The notes beneath the pieces are model-generated. The model ran no database searches, had not been told where the DNA came from, and saw only the letters and a program-made list of their open reading frames with translations. DNA of 64,000 bases from Victivallales bacterium (GTDB lineage Bacteria; Verrucomicrobiota; Lentisphaeria; Victivallales; UBA1829), in assembly GCA_045114235.1 (NCBI GenBank), contig JBGUKB010000068.1:15606-79605 (forward strand). Direction: 5' to 3'. Each line of letters opens with the position of its first letter. Within the stretch, counting starts at the first letter, position 1. Positions 34,111-50,243 of the stretch are shown here, piece after piece. Position numbers and translations under genes: made by a program.

Positions 34111-34185
34111 TGGAGCCGGCTCTCGGATTCGAACCGAGGACCGACGGTTTACAAAACCGTAGCTCTACCGCTGAGCTAAGCCGGC
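34111..34185 (-). tRNA. tRNA-Thr(TGT)
   Basis: GCCGGCTTAGCTCAGCGGTAGAGC-TACGGTT-TGT-AAACCGT...GGTTCGAATCC...GCCGGCTCCA; cloverleaf with encoded CCA. Confidence 0.97.
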
Positions 34186-40993: not shown

Positions 40994-42001
40994 TTAATTA
41001 TACCGTTTCCAGAGCCGGATAAACGTGTCGGTTTCGTGTTCAGGATCTTCCAGGCAGGTCGTCAGCAGGCGCAGGAGCTTCACGCGCGGATGCACGGCCA
41101 GCGGAGAGAGGAGTTCCGGCAGGACCGGAGCGCTGAGGATCGAGAGGATCATGGACTTCAGGGAACGCGGCCCGGCGTCCGCGATGCGGCAGGCGGAGAA
41201 ATGCGCGTCGGCGGAGGCGATATGACGGGTGATCTCCGTTGCAACAAGCGTTATGGTACGTTCCCAGCAGTCCAGATGATACGCGTAGTCCGGCTCCCTG
41301 CCCGTGCCGGGGGCGTATTTGAACGCAAGCGCGTCTTCGTATGCGGGGACCAGCCAGGACGCCTCATGATACTTGCGGAGCGCTTCGAGGCGTTCCGTCC
41401 CGGTCCTGCGGTAGTCGTGATGCACGACCAGGATCGCATCGCCGCAGCCCAGCGCGGCCTTGTGAATGTTGCGCCGGACGAAATCCGCCTCGTTCGGGTC
41501 GGACGCGCGCTGACGGGCGAAAAGCAGCCCCGCGCCGCGGTTGAGGAGGAGACGGGCGGCCTCGGTCCAGGGGAGTTCGGAGAACGGACGGCGGGGCGCG
41601 TCGTCGAAGATGTGTTCATCGCCGAAGATGATGCGGCATCCGGCGAAAAGCTCCTGGATCATCAGGGTGTGGGCGTCTTTGTACAGTGCCTTCAGGGATT
41701 TGACGCAGCAGAAATCGATGTCGATGGCGAGCTTGCCGCGCCATTCCGAAGAAATGGAATTCAGCAGGTCGTGAAGGCCCGGAGACGGCTTCTGTCCGTT
41801 CATCACCACGAAGAAATCCAAGTCGTTGTACGGCATGCCGTCGGGCGTGGCACCCCCCTCGCCCCGTCCGTAGCCGCCGCCGAGCGCGACGGCGCGGATC
41901 GCGGAGGATTCCGGCGAGGCGGCAAGGGAAGCCCGGATGCCGTCGATGGCGTCCTGGATATGGCGTTCAACACGGGGGTCTGCGGATTTGGAGTAGGACA
42001 T
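40994..42001 (-). CDS. Pol-beta superfamily nucleotidyltransferase with helical C-terminal domain
   Basis: VALGGGYGRGEGG...YNDLDFFVV (hG[GS]...DxD) and a third acidic strand IDIDF. Confidence 0.7.
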   Translation of the reverse strand: MSYSKSADPRVERHIQDAIDGIRASLAASPESSAIRAVALGGGYGRGEGGATPDGMPYNDLDFFVVMNGQKPSPGLHDLLNSISSEWRGKLAIDIDFCCVKSLKALYKDAHTLMIQELFAGCRIIFGDEHIFDDAPRRPFSELPWTEAARLLLNRGAGLLFARQRASDPNEADFVRRNIHKAALGCGDAILVVHHDYRRTGTERLEALRKYHEASWLVPAYEDALAFKYAPGTGREPDYAYHLDCWERTITLVATEITRHIASADAHFSACRIADAGPRSLKSMILSILSAPVLPELLSPLAVHPRVKLLRLLTTCLEDPEHETDTFIRLWKRYN

Positions 42002-42026: not shown

Positions 42027-42839
42027 TCAGTTGCCGGAACATTCGGCGGGGAGACCAGGTTCGCGGCCGAATTCCTTGCGGTAGAGCTTGACCGCGGTCC
42101 GGAGGACGTCCGGCCAGATCTTCGCGTCCAGAACGCCCGCGCGGGGCGTGTACGCGGCGATGAAGCGGAGGGCGTCGCGCCGGGAAAGCCCGAGGTCCAT
42201 GGCGGAGAAGAAGATCCCGGCCAGGTCCTTGACGCGGTAGCGGCGGCGGATGCGCGAACGCAACTGCGCCCGGTGGAGGTCGATCACGTGAAGCTTGATG
42301 CGTTTCTCCTGAAGCGAGGCGGGATCCAGCAGGAAATGGCAGATGTAGCAGTCGCGGTGGTTCAGGCCGCTGCCGTGCATCCGGGCGATAGTCACGGCAA
42401 GTGCGCGGATAATGCGGTTCTTGAGCGCGGATGGCGGCGGGTTCGTCTTCCAGTCGCGGCAGAAATCCTCCAGGGAAATCATGCCGACGAGGTCCTCGGT
42501 CACCAGGAAGGATTCCATGGCGGCGGGATTGACGCCGCGGATGCCGAAGGCGCAGGCGGTCATGGTGGGGACGCCGAGCTTGTTCAGCAGGGAAATGGCG
42601 AGGTATTCGTTGGCGGACCCGATCACGGGAAGCTTGAACTGGAGCAGGTTCTTCCATATCTCGCGCCAGCCGACCGGGCCGTGGAGTTTGATGAAGTAGG
42701 ATCTGCCGTCCATGCTGAAGCGCATGGTCTTGCGGTTCTTGACGTCGCGGAAGACCTCGCCTGTCACGGAAAACGCGCTGGCGAACGGGTCCTTGCCCCA
42801 GGCTTTCTGAAACGTGTCGTTGAAGTAAAACTTTTCCAC
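42027..42839 (-). CDS. waaP: lipopolysaccharide core heptose(I) kinase WaaP/RfaP-like
   Basis: YFIKLH..VGWREI.KNL, NEYLAI, SFLVTEDL..MISLEDFC, NHRDCYICHFLL, IDLHRAQ and KDLAGIFFS; GTG start inferred. Confidence 0.85.
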   Translation of the reverse strand: MEKFYFNDTFQKAWGKDPFASAFSVTGEVFRDVKNRKTMRFSMDGRSYFIKLHGPVGWREIWKNLLQFKLPVIGSANEYLAISLLNKLGVPTMTACAFGIRGVNPAAMESFLVTEDLVGMISLEDFCRDWKTNPPPSALKNRIIRALAVTIARMHGSGLNHRDCYICHFLLDPASLQEKRIKLHVIDLHRAQLRSRIRRRYRVKDLAGIFFSAMDLGLSRRDALRFIAAYTPRAGVLDAKIWPDVLRTAVKLYRKEFGREPGLPAECSGN

Positions 42840-42853
42840 GGGGACCTCGAATC

Positions 42854-43387
42854 TTACGGCAGGTTGGGCCGGACAGTCACGTTGCCCTTGGAATCCGTCA
42901 TGTAGACGGGCGCCTCGTCCGGGGGCTGTTCGGCAGGATCGGTGGCGGCTTCCTCCGGCGTGCCGGTCGCACGTATCATGACCTCGAAATACTTCTCCGG
43001 GTCCGTCTTTTCCCAGCTGCTTTTGTACTCCATCGCGATGCCGCAGACGCCGGGGCCGATGACTCGGTAGGCAAAATAATGCGTGCCTTCCCGTCCCTCT
43101 ACGGGCCGCAACCGGCGCGTGCCGTCCGGGTCGGGATCGGATTCGTAGCGCTCGCCCTTTTCGGCGAGGACCCGCACGCTGCCCGCGCCGTGGCGGGAAT
43201 ACCAGTCGTATCCGGCCTTGCCGTTCGAAGCCAGCGCCACCACGATGGTGTCGCCGACGCACAGGTCAAGCGTCCTGCCGGAATCCGAGTTCGTGAGCAG
43301 GATCTGCTGCGGGGACCGGCAGGAGACCGTGAGGCAGGCGGCGAGGGCCGCGAGGAAAAAACTGATCGTGAACCGGAAATGCGTCAT
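42854..43387 (-). CDS. lipoprotein with chagasin-like (inhibitor I42) domain
   Basis: Signal peptide with lipobox LTVSC; LDLCVGDTIVVALASNGKAGYDW, GTHYFAYRVIGPG and MEYKSSWE. Confidence 0.65.
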   Translation of the reverse strand: MTHFRFTISFFLAALAACLTVSCRSPQQILLTNSDSGRTLDLCVGDTIVVALASNGKAGYDWYSRHGAGSVRVLAEKGERYESDPDPDGTRRLRPVEGREGTHYFAYRVIGPGVCGIAMEYKSSWEKTDPEKYFEVMIRATGTPEEAATDPAEQPPDEAPVYMTDSKGNVTVRPNLP

Positions 43388-43419: not shown

Positions 43420-43455
43420 AAAAAAACGGGACGCCGCCCCGGCGGGATGGCCCGA
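43420..43455 (-). terminator. probable intrinsic terminator after the hcp-like gene
   Basis: Minus-strand GC hairpin followed by GTTTTTTT. Confidence 0.5.
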
Positions 43456-43480: not shown

Positions 43481-45052
43481 TCAGTTGCCCGCCATCATGT
43501 CCGCGGCGTCGGCCTCGGCGGTGGTGACGGGCTTCACGCCGTAGTCGCGCGTGAGGACTTCGAGGATGCCGGGGGAGAAGAACGCGGGGAACGTCGGGCC
43601 GAGGCGGATGTTCTTGAAGCCGAGCGTGAGCAGCGCCAGGAAGACCGCGATCGTCTTCTGTTCGTACCAGGAGAGCACGAAGGAGACGGGGAGCTTGTCG
43701 AGCGTGCGGATGCCGAGGGCGTTCTGGAGTTCGAGCGCGATGCGGATGATGGAGTAGGCGTCGTTGATCTGCCCGATGTCCATGATGCGCGGGATGCCGG
43801 TGATCTTGCCGAGGTCGAGGTTCAGGAAACGGTACTTCGCGCCGCCCGCGGTCAGGATGACGGTGTCGGGCGGGAGCGCCTTCGCCAGCTCGGTGAAATA
43901 TGCGCGGCGTTCATCACGTCCGTCCTCGCCCGCGATCACGATGAAGCGGCGGATGGTGCCGTTTTCGATGTAGTGCGCGATCTGGGAGATCACGGAGCAG
44001 ACCTGATGGTGTCCGAAGCCGCCGGTGAGGACGACGGAATCGGTGTCGAGCGGCGTGGGGGCGGGGAGCGTCTTGGCGAGGCGGATGACCTCGGAGAAAT
44101 CCTTCTGCATGCCGATGTGGCGGTGCGTGATGTGGGGCGTGCCCTTGCAGCCCGCCATGCCGGTGGTGAAGATGCGCCCGCGGTAGGCGTCCTGCACCGG
44201 GGTGATGCAGTTCGAGTTGACGATAACGGGTCCGTTGAACGAGGCGAAGTCCTGCGTCTGGGTCCACCAGGAGCCGCCGTAGTTGCCCTTCAGGTGCGGG
44301 AACCTACGGAATCCGGGATAGGTGTTGGCGGGAAGCATGTCGCCGTGCGTGTAGACGTCAACGTCGGCGTGCTCGGTCTGGATCAGGAGCTCCTCGAGGT
44401 CCTTCAGGTCCTGCCCGGACATCAGGATGCCGGGGTTCTGTCCGGCTTTCCAGGAGACATGGCAGATCGCCGGGGAGCCGTAGGTCTCGGTGTTGGCTTC
44501 GTCCAGCAGCGCCATGGCGACGGAGGCGATGCGTCCGCACTCGACGATCAGCAGGGCGAGGCGTTCGTGCGGAGTGTCGGGCTTGGCCGTGGCGGACAGC
44601 GCCTTGATGATGAAGTTGTAGACGGCGTTGTCCTCGTAGCCGAGGGCAAGCGCGTGAAACGCGAAGGCGCAGACGCCCTTCAGTCCGTACAGGAGGAAAT
44701 CGCGGTAGCTGCGCTCCTCCGGGTCCCCGGAGGAAAGGGCGGAAGGATCCACCTGGATGTCGGAATCGAGCGTGCGGAGGGCGCGTTTCGCCTCGTCGAT
44801 GAGGGAATAGATGCGGTCGGGGTTGAAATTGGTATCGGTGAGCGTGGCGGACATGGCGCGCACGATGAAGCGGCTGAACTCGCGCGTAACGTTGGTGCGG
44901 CCTTCCAGGGTCAGGGCGACGGCCTTGAGCTCGGCGATGAGGCGGTCCTGAAGATTGGCGGTCTCGGACGTTTCGCCGCAGCGGCCGCCGGTCGTGCAGC
45001 CTTTGTTGCCGAAAGCCTCCTGGCACTGGTTGCAGAACATGGATCCTTCCAT
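43481..45052 (-). CDS. hcp: hybrid cluster protein (hydroxylamine reductase) homolog with degenerate hybrid-cluster ligands
   Basis: MFCNQCQE...GCTTGGRCG, YGLKG, GNYGGSWW, FNGP, GGFGHHQV, SWYEQK and IRLGPT.PAF; start trimmed to MEGSMFC. Confidence 0.9.
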   Translation of the reverse strand: MEGSMFCNQCQEAFGNKGCTTGGRCGETSETANLQDRLIAELKAVALTLEGRTNVTREFSRFIVRAMSATLTDTNFNPDRIYSLIDEAKRALRTLDSDIQVDPSALSSGDPEERSYRDFLLYGLKGVCAFAFHALALGYEDNAVYNFIIKALSATAKPDTPHERLALLIVECGRIASVAMALLDEANTETYGSPAICHVSWKAGQNPGILMSGQDLKDLEELLIQTEHADVDVYTHGDMLPANTYPGFRRFPHLKGNYGGSWWTQTQDFASFNGPVIVNSNCITPVQDAYRGRIFTTGMAGCKGTPHITHRHIGMQKDFSEVIRLAKTLPAPTPLDTDSVVLTGGFGHHQVCSVISQIAHYIENGTIRRFIVIAGEDGRDERRAYFTELAKALPPDTVILTAGGAKYRFLNLDLGKITGIPRIMDIGQINDAYSIIRIALELQNALGIRTLDKLPVSFVLSWYEQKTIAVFLALLTLGFKNIRLGPTFPAFFSPGILEVLTRDYGVKPVTTAEADAADMMAGN

Positions 45053-45113
45053 CTGGATTTTCTCCTTTATAGAAATTGATGTTTGTTTTCGGAAAATGGG
45101 AAATCCCGGATGT

Positions 45114-45142
45114 ATTTTACACGCTGAAAACCGTTTTGTCAA
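45114..45142 (-). promoter_or_regulatory. near-consensus sigma70 promoter of the hcp-like gene
   Basis: TTGACA-17 bp-TAAAAT with an extended TG. Confidence 0.7.
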
Positions 45143-45258
45143 ATCGTTTCCGCGGAAAACACAAAGGTTTTGCGATAATCATGCCTCCCGCGAATCCGGT
45201 GACATTCCGTTTTGTCCCCGTGCGCAAGCGAAGCTGAGCGCACAGCCGCAGTGGAGGC

Positions 45259-47972: not shown

Positions 47973-50153
47973 TCAGTCGCCGGAAAGCTCTTTGACCATT
48001 TCGGCCGGCAGCGGCTCAAGCTTCGCGATCACGCATTCGCCGAGTTCGGGCAGCTTGACCTTTTCGCCGACCTTGTGTTCCACGAGAGCCTGTCCGAGCG
48101 GAGCCTTGTAGGCGATGCGGCCGCGGTCGACGTCGCCGTCCCAGGCGCCGAGGATGTAGTAGGAAATCTCCTTGCCGTTGGCGTCCTTCAGGAAGACGCG
48201 ACAGCCCGGCACGACAGTGTCGGAGAGCTCGACGTCGCTGAAATTCGTGACATCCATGAAACCGAGCGATTTTTCGAGCTCGGAACGGCGTCTCTGGAGG
48301 AAGCGGCGCTGCTCTTTCGCGGCGTCGTATTCCGCATTTTCGCGAAGGTCGCCGAAGCTTCTTGCGTACGCCACGGCCTCGGCGTTCTGCGGGATCAGGA
48401 CTTCGATGAGGTTCTTGAGTTCGGCCTGCATGCGTTTCTGCGAGGCGAACGACGCGATCGGAGGCTGTTCCGTGTTGCCGGCGGCATGGATGCCGAGGAG
48501 CTTGCTGCCTTCGCCGCTTTCGATGTATTCCATGAATTCCGGCGAGACGCGGCCCATCTTGACCATGACGCTCTGGAGCTCGCTGGCCTGCGTACGGAAT
48601 TTCTGAAGGCTGCCGACGATGGACGGGATATCGCCGTCGGCGTTCTCGATCAGGTATTTGCGGAAATCGGCCTTTTCGCCGAGGAGGATGCGTTTGAGTT
48701 CGCGCTGGGCGGCGCCCCATTCCTTCGGGAGATCAGAGCGGTTCAGGGCGGCGACGACGGTCTCCATGTCGACCAGCGAGGTGATGATCTTCGATTTGAT
48801 GCGCGCCTTGTTCTTCCAGATCCAGAGGCAGACGTCGGCGGAAAGGGTGTCCATCGCGGCGATCTTGGTGATGATGCTCTGGACAAGCGCGGCGTCCGCG
48901 GCTTCGCGCGCGGCGGCGTCTTCCTTCGTTTCGGACGCGGCTTTCTTCCGCGGCTCGAAGAAGACGGTCATGCAGCGGAGCGGGAGCATCAGGCCGAGGG
49001 AGACGAATTCGTCCTGCGTGTAGATGGCGCGGGTGGCGGCAAGAAGGCCGTCGAGGTCCTTCACGGAGATCTTCGCCCAGATCGCGAGGTTCGCGAGCTT
49101 GACGCCTTCGGGGATCGAAGCGGGCCAGAACGGGACCTGACCGCGGAGCGGAGTGAACATCGCGGCGAGGTCTTCCGGCGCGGCGTCGAGGGAAAGCCAG
49201 GAGATGGATTCGGCGAGCATCTGGACATCCTTCGGGAGGAGCCTGGAGCTGACGCGAACGAACAGCTTTCCGAGCTTTTCGGCGGCCGCGGCGTCGACGG
49301 CCACGGCATTGCCGCCGTCCACGATGCCCTTCAGGAGCGTATAAAGCTCAAGCACGCTGCGGGAATCGCTGAAATGACGTTTCCCGCCTGCCGAAGCGGC
49401 CGCGGGCGACGCGTCCCACCAGGCGGCGAATGCGGAGGAAGTCAGATACTGCGGCACCAGAAGACGCTGCACAAGCTCCTGAAGCTTCTGTTCCGGCACG
49501 TCGGAAAGCGCCAGACGGTTCAGGACGCGGCGGTATTCGGAGGAGGAACGGATCGAGGATCCGAGCGGGGAGATCAGCTCCATGAGCTCGGGCGTGGTCT
49601 CGAAGAAATAGGCGGAAACGATCGCCGACGCGATCGGAATGGAGGAGGAGCCGGAACCGTCGATCGGGGTCACGGCGATGGTGCCGGTCACGCGGTCGAT
49701 GCCCGTGATGCGTCCGCACAGCCCGGTCTCCTGCTGGTACATGATCGCGGTCGAGCGCAGGCGCTGGAGTTTCTTGAGGCGGAGCGCGACTTCGCGGACG
49801 CCGACGTTCGCGTCTTTCGCGCCGAGGGCCTTCACGACCGCGCCGCTGACCAGGTAGGGAGGAAGCAGCTTGCGGACCGCATAGTTCAGCGAGCTGCGGA
49901 AATTCGCGGAATCCAGGATGGAGAGTTCGGCGATCCGGACACAGAATTTCGCCTTGTCGAGGGAGGCGGAAATCTGGTCGTCCCACGCCTCGAACAAAGC
50001 TTCGAACTGGGGCGCGGCGGCGCGGAGTTCCTGAATGCCGTCCGCGGTTCCCAGACGGTTGACGCGGTCAAACAGGACACTGACAGCGTCGTCGTGCTGT
50101 TCCAGTTGAGCGTACAGGATCAGGTCCGGCAGAGAAAAGTCATTGATACTCAT
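47973..50153 (-). CDS. greA: GreA/GreB transcription elongation factor with large N-terminal extension
   Basis: C-terminal AYARSFGDLRENAEYDAAKEQ, VVPGCRV, YYILGAWD and IAYKAPLGQAL; about 570 aa N-terminal region; start at MSINDF. Confidence 0.85.
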   Translation of the reverse strand: MSINDFSLPDLILYAQLEQHDDAVSVLFDRVNRLGTADGIQELRAAAPQFEALFEAWDDQISASLDKAKFCVRIAELSILDSANFRSSLNYAVRKLLPPYLVSGAVVKALGAKDANVGVREVALRLKKLQRLRSTAIMYQQETGLCGRITGIDRVTGTIAVTPIDGSGSSSIPIASAIVSAYFFETTPELMELISPLGSSIRSSSEYRRVLNRLALSDVPEQKLQELVQRLLVPQYLTSSAFAAWWDASPAAASAGGKRHFSDSRSVLELYTLLKGIVDGGNAVAVDAAAAEKLGKLFVRVSSRLLPKDVQMLAESISWLSLDAAPEDLAAMFTPLRGQVPFWPASIPEGVKLANLAIWAKISVKDLDGLLAATRAIYTQDEFVSLGLMLPLRCMTVFFEPRKKAASETKEDAAAREAADAALVQSIITKIAAMDTLSADVCLWIWKNKARIKSKIITSLVDMETVVAALNRSDLPKEWGAAQRELKRILLGEKADFRKYLIENADGDIPSIVGSLQKFRTQASELQSVMVKMGRVSPEFMEYIESGEGSKLLGIHAAGNTEQPPIASFASQKRMQAELKNLIEVLIPQNAEAVAYARSFGDLRENAEYDAAKEQRRFLQRRRSELEKSLGFMDVTNFSDVELSDTVVPGCRVFLKDANGKEISYYILGAWDGDVDRGRIAYKAPLGQALVEHKVGEKVKLPELGECVIAKLEPLPAEMVKELSGD

Positions 50154-50214
50154 AGTGAGTCGTCTCCTTCGACGTCGGTTAGTCAAATAGCATTTGTGAT
50201 TTATATAACTAATT

Positions 50215-50243
50215 AATGTACACCTGATCCGGCGTTTTTTCAA
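50215..50243 (-). promoter_or_regulatory. sigma70-type promoter of greA
   Basis: TTGAAA-17 bp-TACATT with an extended TG. Confidence 0.65.

Follow-up and report, generated by a model that had tools for sequence, protein, structure and literature searches.

The stretch analysed here, 64,000 nucleotides of a Victivallales bacterium that we refer to as the window, carries on its minus strand an intact open reading frame (ORF; 43481-45142) for a homologue of Hcp, the hybrid-cluster or 'prismane' protein. Hcp is an iron-sulfur enzyme that detoxifies nitric oxide (NO) and hydroxylamine. The original prediction, made from the letters of the window alone, was that this homologue has lost the ligands of its hybrid cluster but appears to be maintained and expressed. 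The start listed for the ORF, TTG at 45142, is part of the -35 hexamer of the hcp promoter. Translation almost certainly begins with the ATG at 45052 (MEGSMFCNQCQE..., MEGSMFC...), which lies 9 nt after a ribosome binding site (RBS), AAGGAG; both elements are invariant in every orthologous locus. Given this start, the protein has 523 residues and not 553.

The protein matches the Pfam family PF03063 (Prismane) with 406 bits against a cut-off of 27 (E=3e-121), and two NCBIfam 'hydroxylamine reductase' equivalogs, NF003658 (609 bits, cut-off 367) and TIGR01703 (569 bits, cut-off 361). Among solved structures, the best matches are class I Hcps from Desulfovibrio vulgaris (1E2U, phmmer E=5e-156) and Methanothermococcus thermolithotrophicus (8CNR). 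The four-Cys motif is present, length and alignment fit the class I structures, and neither the class II insertion nor the class III deletion is seen. A model built with AlphaFold2 from an 81-sequence alignment has a mean predicted local distance difference test score (pLDDT) of 90.7 and a predicted template-modelling score (pTM) of 0.92; compared with 8CNR and 1E2U in Foldseek, it gives a template-modelling (TM) score of 0.96 and a root-mean-square deviation of 1.7 Å at ∼44% identity. The three-domain Hcp fold is predicted to be retained. GC content at third codon positions is 0.90, equal to that of the GlnRS and H+-PPase genes. Public records call the proteins of this clade "hydroxylamine reductase [Lentisphaeria bacterium]" (e.g. 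MBR4254524.1).

Ligand columns were taken from a phmmer alignment to 1E2U and are numbered as in D. vulgaris Hcp. The canonical hybrid-cluster set consists of His244, Glu268, Cys312, Cys406, Cys434, Cys459 and Glu494. The positions of interest are listed below, where 'intermediate' denotes a sister lineage described in the next section and 'variant' the clade of the window protein.

43481..45052, minus strand: coding sequence of the ligand-deficient class I Hcp homologue, start ATG at 45052, 523 amino acids plus stop (from the ORF list and the sequence)
44978..45034, minus strand: N-terminal C7-x2-C10-x8-C19-x5-C25, the class I [4Fe-4S] cubane ligands, retained; sequence MFCNQCQEAFGNKGCTTGGRCG
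44459..44464, minus strand: C197-H198 pair (AICHVS), a gain fixed in the variant clade and confined to it; T-[K/E] in canonical proteins, T-Q in the intermediate
44411..44413, minus strand: Q214 (CAG) at ligand His244, SGHDL to SGQDL; intermediate also Gln
44339..44341, minus strand: D238 (GAC) at ligand Glu268, THGEM to THGDM; intermediate keeps Glu
44207..44209, minus strand: C282 (TGC), ligand Cys312 kept (NSNC; 1E2U alignment)
43925..43927, minus strand: E376 (GAG) at the persulfide ligand Cys406, AGCDG to AGEDG; intermediate has Ser
43841..43843, minus strand: G404 (GGC) at ligand Cys434, AGCAK to AGGAK; G or S within the clade
43766..43768, minus strand: I429 (ATC) at ligand Cys459, GQCND to GQIND; I, L or V within the clade
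43655..43663, minus strand: E464-Q465-K466 (WYEQK), ligand Glu494 and conserved Lys496, both kept (1E2U alignment)

Three other gains, His162, His228 and Tyr116, are common to variants and intermediate.

The window protein departs from the ligand set of a functional Hcp, with two of the seven ligands left (Cys312 and Glu494). Like 1E2U and 8CNR, it combines the predicted class I fold with the cubane motif, Cys312, Glu494 and Lys496; unlike them, it has Gln, Asp, Glu, Gly and Ile in place of His244, Glu268, Cys406, Cys434 and Cys459. The four cubane cysteines are invariant across variant, intermediate and canonical sequences, and C10 shows synonymous turnover between TGC and TGT. On the letters of the gene itself the original prediction was accurate: it had reported the N-terminal C-x2-C-x8-C-x5-C motif (C7, C10, C19, C25), the five substitutions with their codon positions, the retention of NSNC and of the Glu and Lys of WYEQK (C282, E464, K466), and the need for multiple base changes to turn Cys into Glu (TGC to GAG, three) or Ile (TGC to ATC, two). 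Conservation in the nearest canonical homologues reaches 97% or more at 163 columns, of which 143 are unchanged in the window protein and 20 differ; 5 of the 7 ligands are changed, versus 15 of the 156 other columns (Fisher p=3e-4), so ligand changes occur more often than expected by chance.

Neither Gly/Ser at position 434 nor Ile/Leu/Val at position 459 can serve as an iron ligand, and the His and the persulfide Cys have both been replaced, which makes a four-iron hybrid cluster very unlikely. Judged by its ligand positions, the window protein is also very unlikely to perform the known NO/hydroxylamine reductase chemistry, and the database name "hydroxylamine reductase" is very unlikely to be right for it. 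An alternative is that a hybrid-type Fe-S-O cluster is still built with oxygen donors (Glu376, Asp238, Gln214 and water), in which case the protein would be an NO/hydroxylamine reductase and its name correct. Scores above the curated cut-offs of both NCBIfam equivalogs fit this idea, as do the predicted fold and the cubane motif, and CODH-V, a carbon monoxide dehydrogenase (CODH), illustrates that unusual cluster ligation is tolerated in the superfamily (PMC10502027). However, the canonical cysteines at 434 and 459 hold two of the four irons in 1E2U and 8CNR, and we consider such a cluster improbable.

Distribution, order of loss and selection

We compiled the 120 best database homologues of the window protein and read their residues at positions 244, 268, 312, 406, 434, 459, 494 and 496. 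The eight closest clusters (83-96% identity) all have Q-D-C-E-(G/S)-(I/L)-E-K. The next cluster, P0009 (81% identity), has Q-E-C-S-C-C-E-R, and the remaining 111 of the 120 (≤64% identity) have H-E-C-C-C-C-E-K. All seven ligands are thus present in 111/111 of the closest canonical homologues, a uniformity that also speaks against the oxygen-ligated cluster considered above.

A species scan, with one genome per GTDB species and query-specific peptide patterns, placed the gene at 91-96% identity in 12 rumen Lentisphaeria/Victivallales metagenome-assembled genomes (MAGs) from goat, yak, sheep and cattle projects, all 12 with the variant pattern. The pattern recurs in three further contigs (L001, L085, L086), and among 58 additional cluster members it is found in all 42 variant-clade sequences that cover the ligand columns. 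The search for orthologues suggested in the original prediction thus recovered the same substitutions in 12 species-level genomes and in metagenome contigs. An assembly artefact, which it had raised as a danger, is at odds with the identical residues in independent goat, yak, sheep and cattle assemblies. Eleven of the 12 genomes and every metagenome contig examined carry an intact, full-length ORF. The exception (L015:386-1723; RUG10770, CACWOL010000012.1) encodes an in-frame fusion, AcpS(1-33)::Hcp(112-523), directly after glmS and without the cubane domain. This may be a real rearrangement or, equally likely, a chimeric contig created at a short region of similarity (EER.Y.D.L).

A tblastn search with a canonical relative found no second hcp in the 64-kb window; the scan of the 12 MAGs was not a test for paralogues. 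More than one HCP is found in only ∼6% of genomes in a published survey (PMC13056359). P0017, a widespread canonical Hcp (53% identical), was considered as a paralogue and rejected, as its gene context is unrelated and it probably belongs to another organism.

The sister lineage P0009 (loci L002-L004) carries H244Q, C406S and K496R and keeps the other ligands. The variants share with this intermediate H244Q, the loss of Cys406, K23E, N72D, L147Y, Y161F and L501F (D. vulgaris numbering). Confined to the variants are E268D, Glu at 406, C434G/S, C459I/L/V and A456I/V. As an intermediate with two ligand changes survives, the loss was stepwise and, on this comparison, took at least two steps. The P0009 cluster itself contains two subtypes, Q-E-C-S-C-C-E-R and Q-E-C-S-C-S-E-R, the second of which also lacks Cys459; from these sequences, it looks as though ligand erosion is ongoing in the intermediate, once the first two ligands are gone. 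Such erosion suggests that the hybrid cluster was compromised by the intermediate stage.

To gauge selection on the gene, we computed Nei-Gojobori (NG86) ratios of non-synonymous to synonymous substitution rates (dN/dS, or omega) within the variant clade. The median omega is 0.134 over 105 pairs, at a median dS of 0.29. Seven phylogenetically independent pairs together contain 541 synonymous and 225 non-synonymous changes, for a ratio of the corresponding proportions (pN/pS) of 0.13 (Fisher p≤5e-19 per pair). By region, pN/pS is 0.12 in the helical domain, 0.13 in domain 2 and 0.14 in domain 3, and it is lowest, at 0.095, within 6 residues of the former ligand positions. In the same genomes, the neighbouring genes give 0.055 (GlnRS), 0.145 (a 335-aa protein) and 0.29 (I42). 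Between the variant clade and canonical orthologues, dS is 1.2-1.6, i.e. saturated. We also considered an accelerated rate in the variant clade; this was rejected by Tajima relative-rate tests against canonical P0010 and P0011, which were non-significant in all comparisons. These data show strong purifying selection along the whole length of the protein after ligand loss. They agree with the original prediction that non-ligand neighbours are conserved, and the dN/dS that it proposed to compute is far below 1. Positions 404 (G/S) and 429 (I/V/L) vary within the clade, so the replacement pattern reflects in part relaxation after cluster loss, not design.

These results bear directly on the possibility that the gene no longer functions and is decaying into a pseudogene, or that the substitutions are sequencing or assembly errors. 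The missing active-site ligands would be expected of a relic, and the junction in L015, without the cubane domain, could be an example of decay in 1 of 12 genomes. Against this, neither a disrupted frame nor a dN/dS near 1 is found: ORFs are intact in the other 11 genomes and all metagenome contigs examined, pN/pS is 0.13 over 766 substitutions, promoter and RBS are conserved (see below), independent assemblies agree on the same residues, and the L015 junction is as likely a chimeric contig. We give a relic or artefact hardly any credence.

Gene neighbourhood and expression signals

The loci of variants and intermediate share the gene order GreA-like / Metallophos / GlnRS / hcp / chagasin-like I42 / Kdo-WaaP kinase, which continues with a 335-aa protein, a phosphodiesterase, GT2 and H+-PPase. 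Features of the window that surround hcp are as follows.

47973-50243, minus strand: 756-aa protein; the last ∼150 residues are GreA/GreB N- and C-terminal domains, and the ∼600-residue N-terminal part is without a Pfam match
42030-43387, minus strand: chagasin-family Inhibitor_I42 protein (signal/lipoprotein-like N-terminus) and Kdo/WaaP-family lipopolysaccharide (LPS) kinase; downstream of hcp in canonical, intermediate and variant loci
40994-42001, minus strand: 335-aa protein without a Pfam match, between the Kdo kinase and the phosphodiesterase/GT2 pair; present in all related loci, omega ∼0.145
34114-34185, minus strand: tRNA gene, the sole Rfam match in the window

The nearest canonical relatives, P0010, P0011 and P0016 (58-64% identity; loci L087, L088 and L101), have the same downstream pair of I42-like and Kdo kinase genes; their upstream genes differ from those of the variant loci. 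A distance-based neighbour-joining (NJ) tree places P0009 plus the variants as sister to (P0015, (P0010, P0011)). Judged by these shared downstream genes and the NJ placement, the window gene is the positional orthologue and direct descendant of the lineage's ordinary hcp, i.e. what that gene became, and not an exotic paralogue. The view in the original prediction, that ligands were lost in a targeted way from an otherwise maintained protein, gains support from the clade-wide pattern, the synteny, the purifying selection and the unaccelerated rate.

Canonical hcp, I42 and Kdo genes are packed as an operon, with a 2-nt gap followed by a 4-nt overlap (L087:10001-12877). The window hcp is separated from the I42/Kdo genes by a gap of ∼94 nt that holds a terminator-like hairpin. 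P0010, P0011 and P0016 have a similar TTGACA...GTGTAAAAT-type promoter. They differ from the window gene in keeping seven ligands and in sitting in a tight operon, whereas the window gene has its own terminator-like hairpin. The candidate expression signals are these.

45147..45158, no strand assigned: perfect 12-bp palindrome TTTCCGCGGAAA, 4 nt upstream of the -35 element; candidate operator
45114..45142, minus strand: sigma-70-like promoter TTGACA-17-TAAAAT, matching 11/12 consensus positions
45062..45067, minus strand: RBS AAGGAG, 9 nt before the ATG
43427..43444, minus strand: terminator-like GC hairpin and T-run downstream of the stop codon; a consensus match only, with a similar expectation in shuffled sequence

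The promoter-like site is unique in 2.7 kb, where 0.4 are expected. It is identical in all 16 variant and intermediate loci and similar in canonical orthologues; taken together, the -35 and -10 elements, the RBS and the palindrome are identical in almost all of the variant and intermediate loci. The original prediction had described this promoter; its near-consensus hexamers and 17-nt spacer stand, but the 'TG' that it included abuts the -10 hexamer (GTG-TAAAAT) and is not in the register of an extended -10 element (TGnTATAAT). Its suggestion that the gene is expressed is consistent with the conservation of promoter and RBS across loci. The palindrome TTTCCGCGGAAA occurs once in the window and, in 12 related loci, solely upstream of hcp; in L088, a canonical orthologue, the corresponding site is taken by another palindrome, TTCTTGCAAGAA. 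This arrangement points to regulated transcription by some factor that would bind the upstream palindrome. To our knowledge, TTTCCGCGGAAA does not resemble the FNR-like motif of HcpR. A scan of the hcp 5' region against Rfam gave no match.

The neighbours of the window hcp (GlnRS, the chagasin-like lipoprotein and the Kdo kinase) do not include the typical Hcp partners or regulators, namely hcr, a ferredoxin-like gene and HcpR/NsrR sites. We know of no functional link between Hcp and LPS-core genes. The lack of partners is not strictly defining, as 49% of class I hcp genes are without operon neighbours in a published survey (PMC13056359). Elsewhere in the neighbourhood, the 335-aa protein is probably part of the LPS-core cluster, and the 756-aa GreA-type protein is conserved beside the Metallophos-like gene in all related loci.

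Ligand losses elsewhere in the Hcp family

To survey the family, we searched a library of 50%-identity representatives. Of the 459 that matched at E≤1e-30, the top 150 were aligned to an Hcp hidden Markov model, and 102 of these representatives cover all seven ligand columns. Ligand changes number zero in 76, one or two in 10 and four to seven in 16, and exactly three changes are found in none. Such a bimodal distribution (0-2 in 86, 4-7 in 16) suggests that the cluster is either fully ligated or gone, which is a further argument against a hybrid-type cluster persisting on oxygen donors in the window protein. The flanking motifs align cleanly, and hence the ligand deficiency is not an alignment artefact.

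The ligand-deficient representatives include P0124 (Methylococcaceae), P0237 (Planctomycetia), and P0130 and P0142 (Lachnospiraceae/Bilifractor; Clostridium vitabionis WP_194611240.1), among others; all those named are annotated 'hydroxylamine reductase'. These four resemble the window protein in that the N-terminal four Cys are kept and four to seven hybrid ligands replaced. More generally, 11 ligand-deficient representatives aligned at their N-terminus, and 10 of them have all four N-terminal Cys. The other ligand-deficient homologues differ from the window protein in being only 35-43% identical to it. They are scattered over several places of a crude NJ tree, away from the window protein, and so represent separate loss events.

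Replacements were counted over 17 sequences, namely the window protein and the 16 ligand-deficient representatives. An acidic residue stands at position 268 in 16/17 and at position 494 in 13/17, and position 496 is Lys or Arg in 15/17. Position 406 is Glu, Asp, Ser or Thr in 13/17, position 459 is Ile or Leu in 9/17, and position 244 is polar. Cys312 is kept in just 5/17.

Gene contexts of the other ligand-deficient lineages vary, with either a ferredoxin-like neighbour or a two-component system and a radical-SAM-like gene, and no common gene partner was found among the contexts of three such lineages. The ligand-deficient Hcps of Lachnospiraceae/Clostridium (L102, L103, L106; P0130, P0142) are 611-653 aa long and carry a DUF1858 (PF08984) domain. 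In L106, genes for a response regulator and a histidine kinase lie before the hcp homologue, and one for a small radical-SAM/Fer4_12 protein comes after it.

In the Hcp literature examined, the cluster ligands are taken as conserved in all Hcp classes. We found no published description of ligand-deficient Hcps, which the original prediction had named among the things that would refute it, although a brief earlier mention may exist. A parallel lies on the CODH side of the Prismane/CODH fold family, where CODH groups with incomplete C-cluster signatures (A-4, A-6, B-1) and the non-CO-oxidising CODH-V (C. hydrogenoformans, clade D) are documented, and where sensing or regulatory roles have been proposed for the non-canonical Ni-CODH groups (PMC6344411; PMC13056359). 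Active-site metal ligands are replaced in these enzymes (e.g. Cys to Asp/Glu), as they are in the window protein, and auxiliary Fe-S clusters are kept. Unlike the window protein, they are CODH-side homodimers with other ligand sets, at 14-17% identity, and CODH-V still binds a 4Fe cluster.

Possible functions and significance

On balance we lean towards the window protein being a [4Fe-4S]-only Fe-S protein that has no hybrid cluster and serves in a non-canonical redox, sensor or scaffold role. The cubane motif, kept here and in nearly all parallel lineages, together with purifying selection along the whole length, argues for a working Fe-S protein. Under this reading, an ordinary class I Hcp in a rumen Lentisphaeria lineage, in the same neighbourhood, would have been the starting point. 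In a first step, His244 would have become Gln and the persulfide Cys406 been lost, a state that survives in the sister lineage; in a second, Glu268 would have become Asp, Cys434 Gly or Ser and Cys459 Ile, Leu or Val, with Glu arising at 406. The outcome would be a protein without the 4Fe-2S-2O(3O) hybrid cluster that keeps the three-domain fold and the N-terminal [4Fe-4S] site. It would be transcribed from its own conserved promoter, and its maintenance by selection would mean that it is still useful, though not by the known Hcp mechanism. It may act as an electron-transfer partner, a redox or NO sensor, or a scaffold. Such a role could be a second, cluster-independent function of Hcp, or could have been acquired after catalysis was lost. 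Among the candidate functions put forward in the original prediction (pseudoenzyme, electron carrier, regulator, new metal site), the data do not single one out.

Three observations weigh against this reading, as they would be expected of a rebuilt pocket no less than of an empty one. Position 406 became Glu by three base changes and has stayed Glu among species while its codon switches between GAG and GAA; Asp238, Glu464, Lys466 and Cys282 do not vary; and constraint on the protein peaks in the loops beside the former ligands. In addition, this reading does not account for the new invariant Cys197-His198 pair. Nor does gene context help, since the neighbours are LPS-core and housekeeping genes and are uninformative on function.

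The same observations can be read as signs that the old pocket now houses another, smaller site for catalysis or binding, still linked to the N-terminal [4Fe-4S] cluster, and that the protein is an enzyme with new chemistry. Its residues would be Gln214, Asp238, Cys282, Glu376, Glu464, Lys466 and perhaps Cys197/His198, forming either a mono- or dinuclear carboxylate-ligated metal centre or a metal-free Cys/Glu/Glu/Lys site. The three-base path to Glu376 and its persistence through codon turnover are what one would expect of such a site, and a Glu side chain is, by reasoning only, about as long as a Cys persulfide. Q214, D238, C282, E464 and K466 are invariant in ∼57 clade sequences, the pN/pS minimum falls around the ligand positions, the Cys197-His198 pair has been gained, and the other ligand-deficient lineages show convergence, with positions 268 and 494 mostly acidic, 496 basic, 406 acidic or hydroxyl and 244 polar. 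Yet three of the four Cys ligands are lost, and positions 404 (G/S) and 429 (I/L/V) drift. Moreover, ∼71% of all sites are invariant in the clade, so that invariance of six of them is weak evidence; the flanking motifs lie at strand ends, where conservation may reflect folding alone; and Cys312 is retained in few of the ligand-deficient lineages. We regard such a new site as the main rival reading but as somewhat unlikely, and continue to prefer a [4Fe-4S]-only protein.

A broader proposal is that ligand-deficient Hcps arose repeatedly by convergence and make up a functional class of their own, which would amount to a fourth Hcp type. We put this forward as speculation and rather doubt it. If it were true, a polar site (acidic 268, 406 and 494, Lys/Arg 496, hydrophobic 459) would replace the 4Fe hybrid cluster and be coupled to the N-terminal [4Fe-4S] cluster for different chemistry or sensing, and the rumen Lentisphaeria clade with its living intermediate would capture the transition between the two states.

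The findings also matter for annotation. About one in six of the 50%-identity clusters sampled lacks most of the ligands, yet NCBI and JGI name such proteins "hydroxylamine reductase"; reconstructions of nitrogen-oxide detoxification in rumen and gut that count hcp hits will therefore over-count. For enzymology, a cluster-less orthologue under purifying selection would imply that the scaffold has a function without the hybrid cluster, which offers a handle on the debated role of Hcp. If that second role predated cluster loss, it could be part of the reason that a physiological function for Hcp has proved difficult to pin down. For evolution, the canonical, intermediate and ligand-deficient orthologues, all upstream of the same two genes, provide an ordered series in which the dismantling or rebuilding of a metallocluster may be followed.

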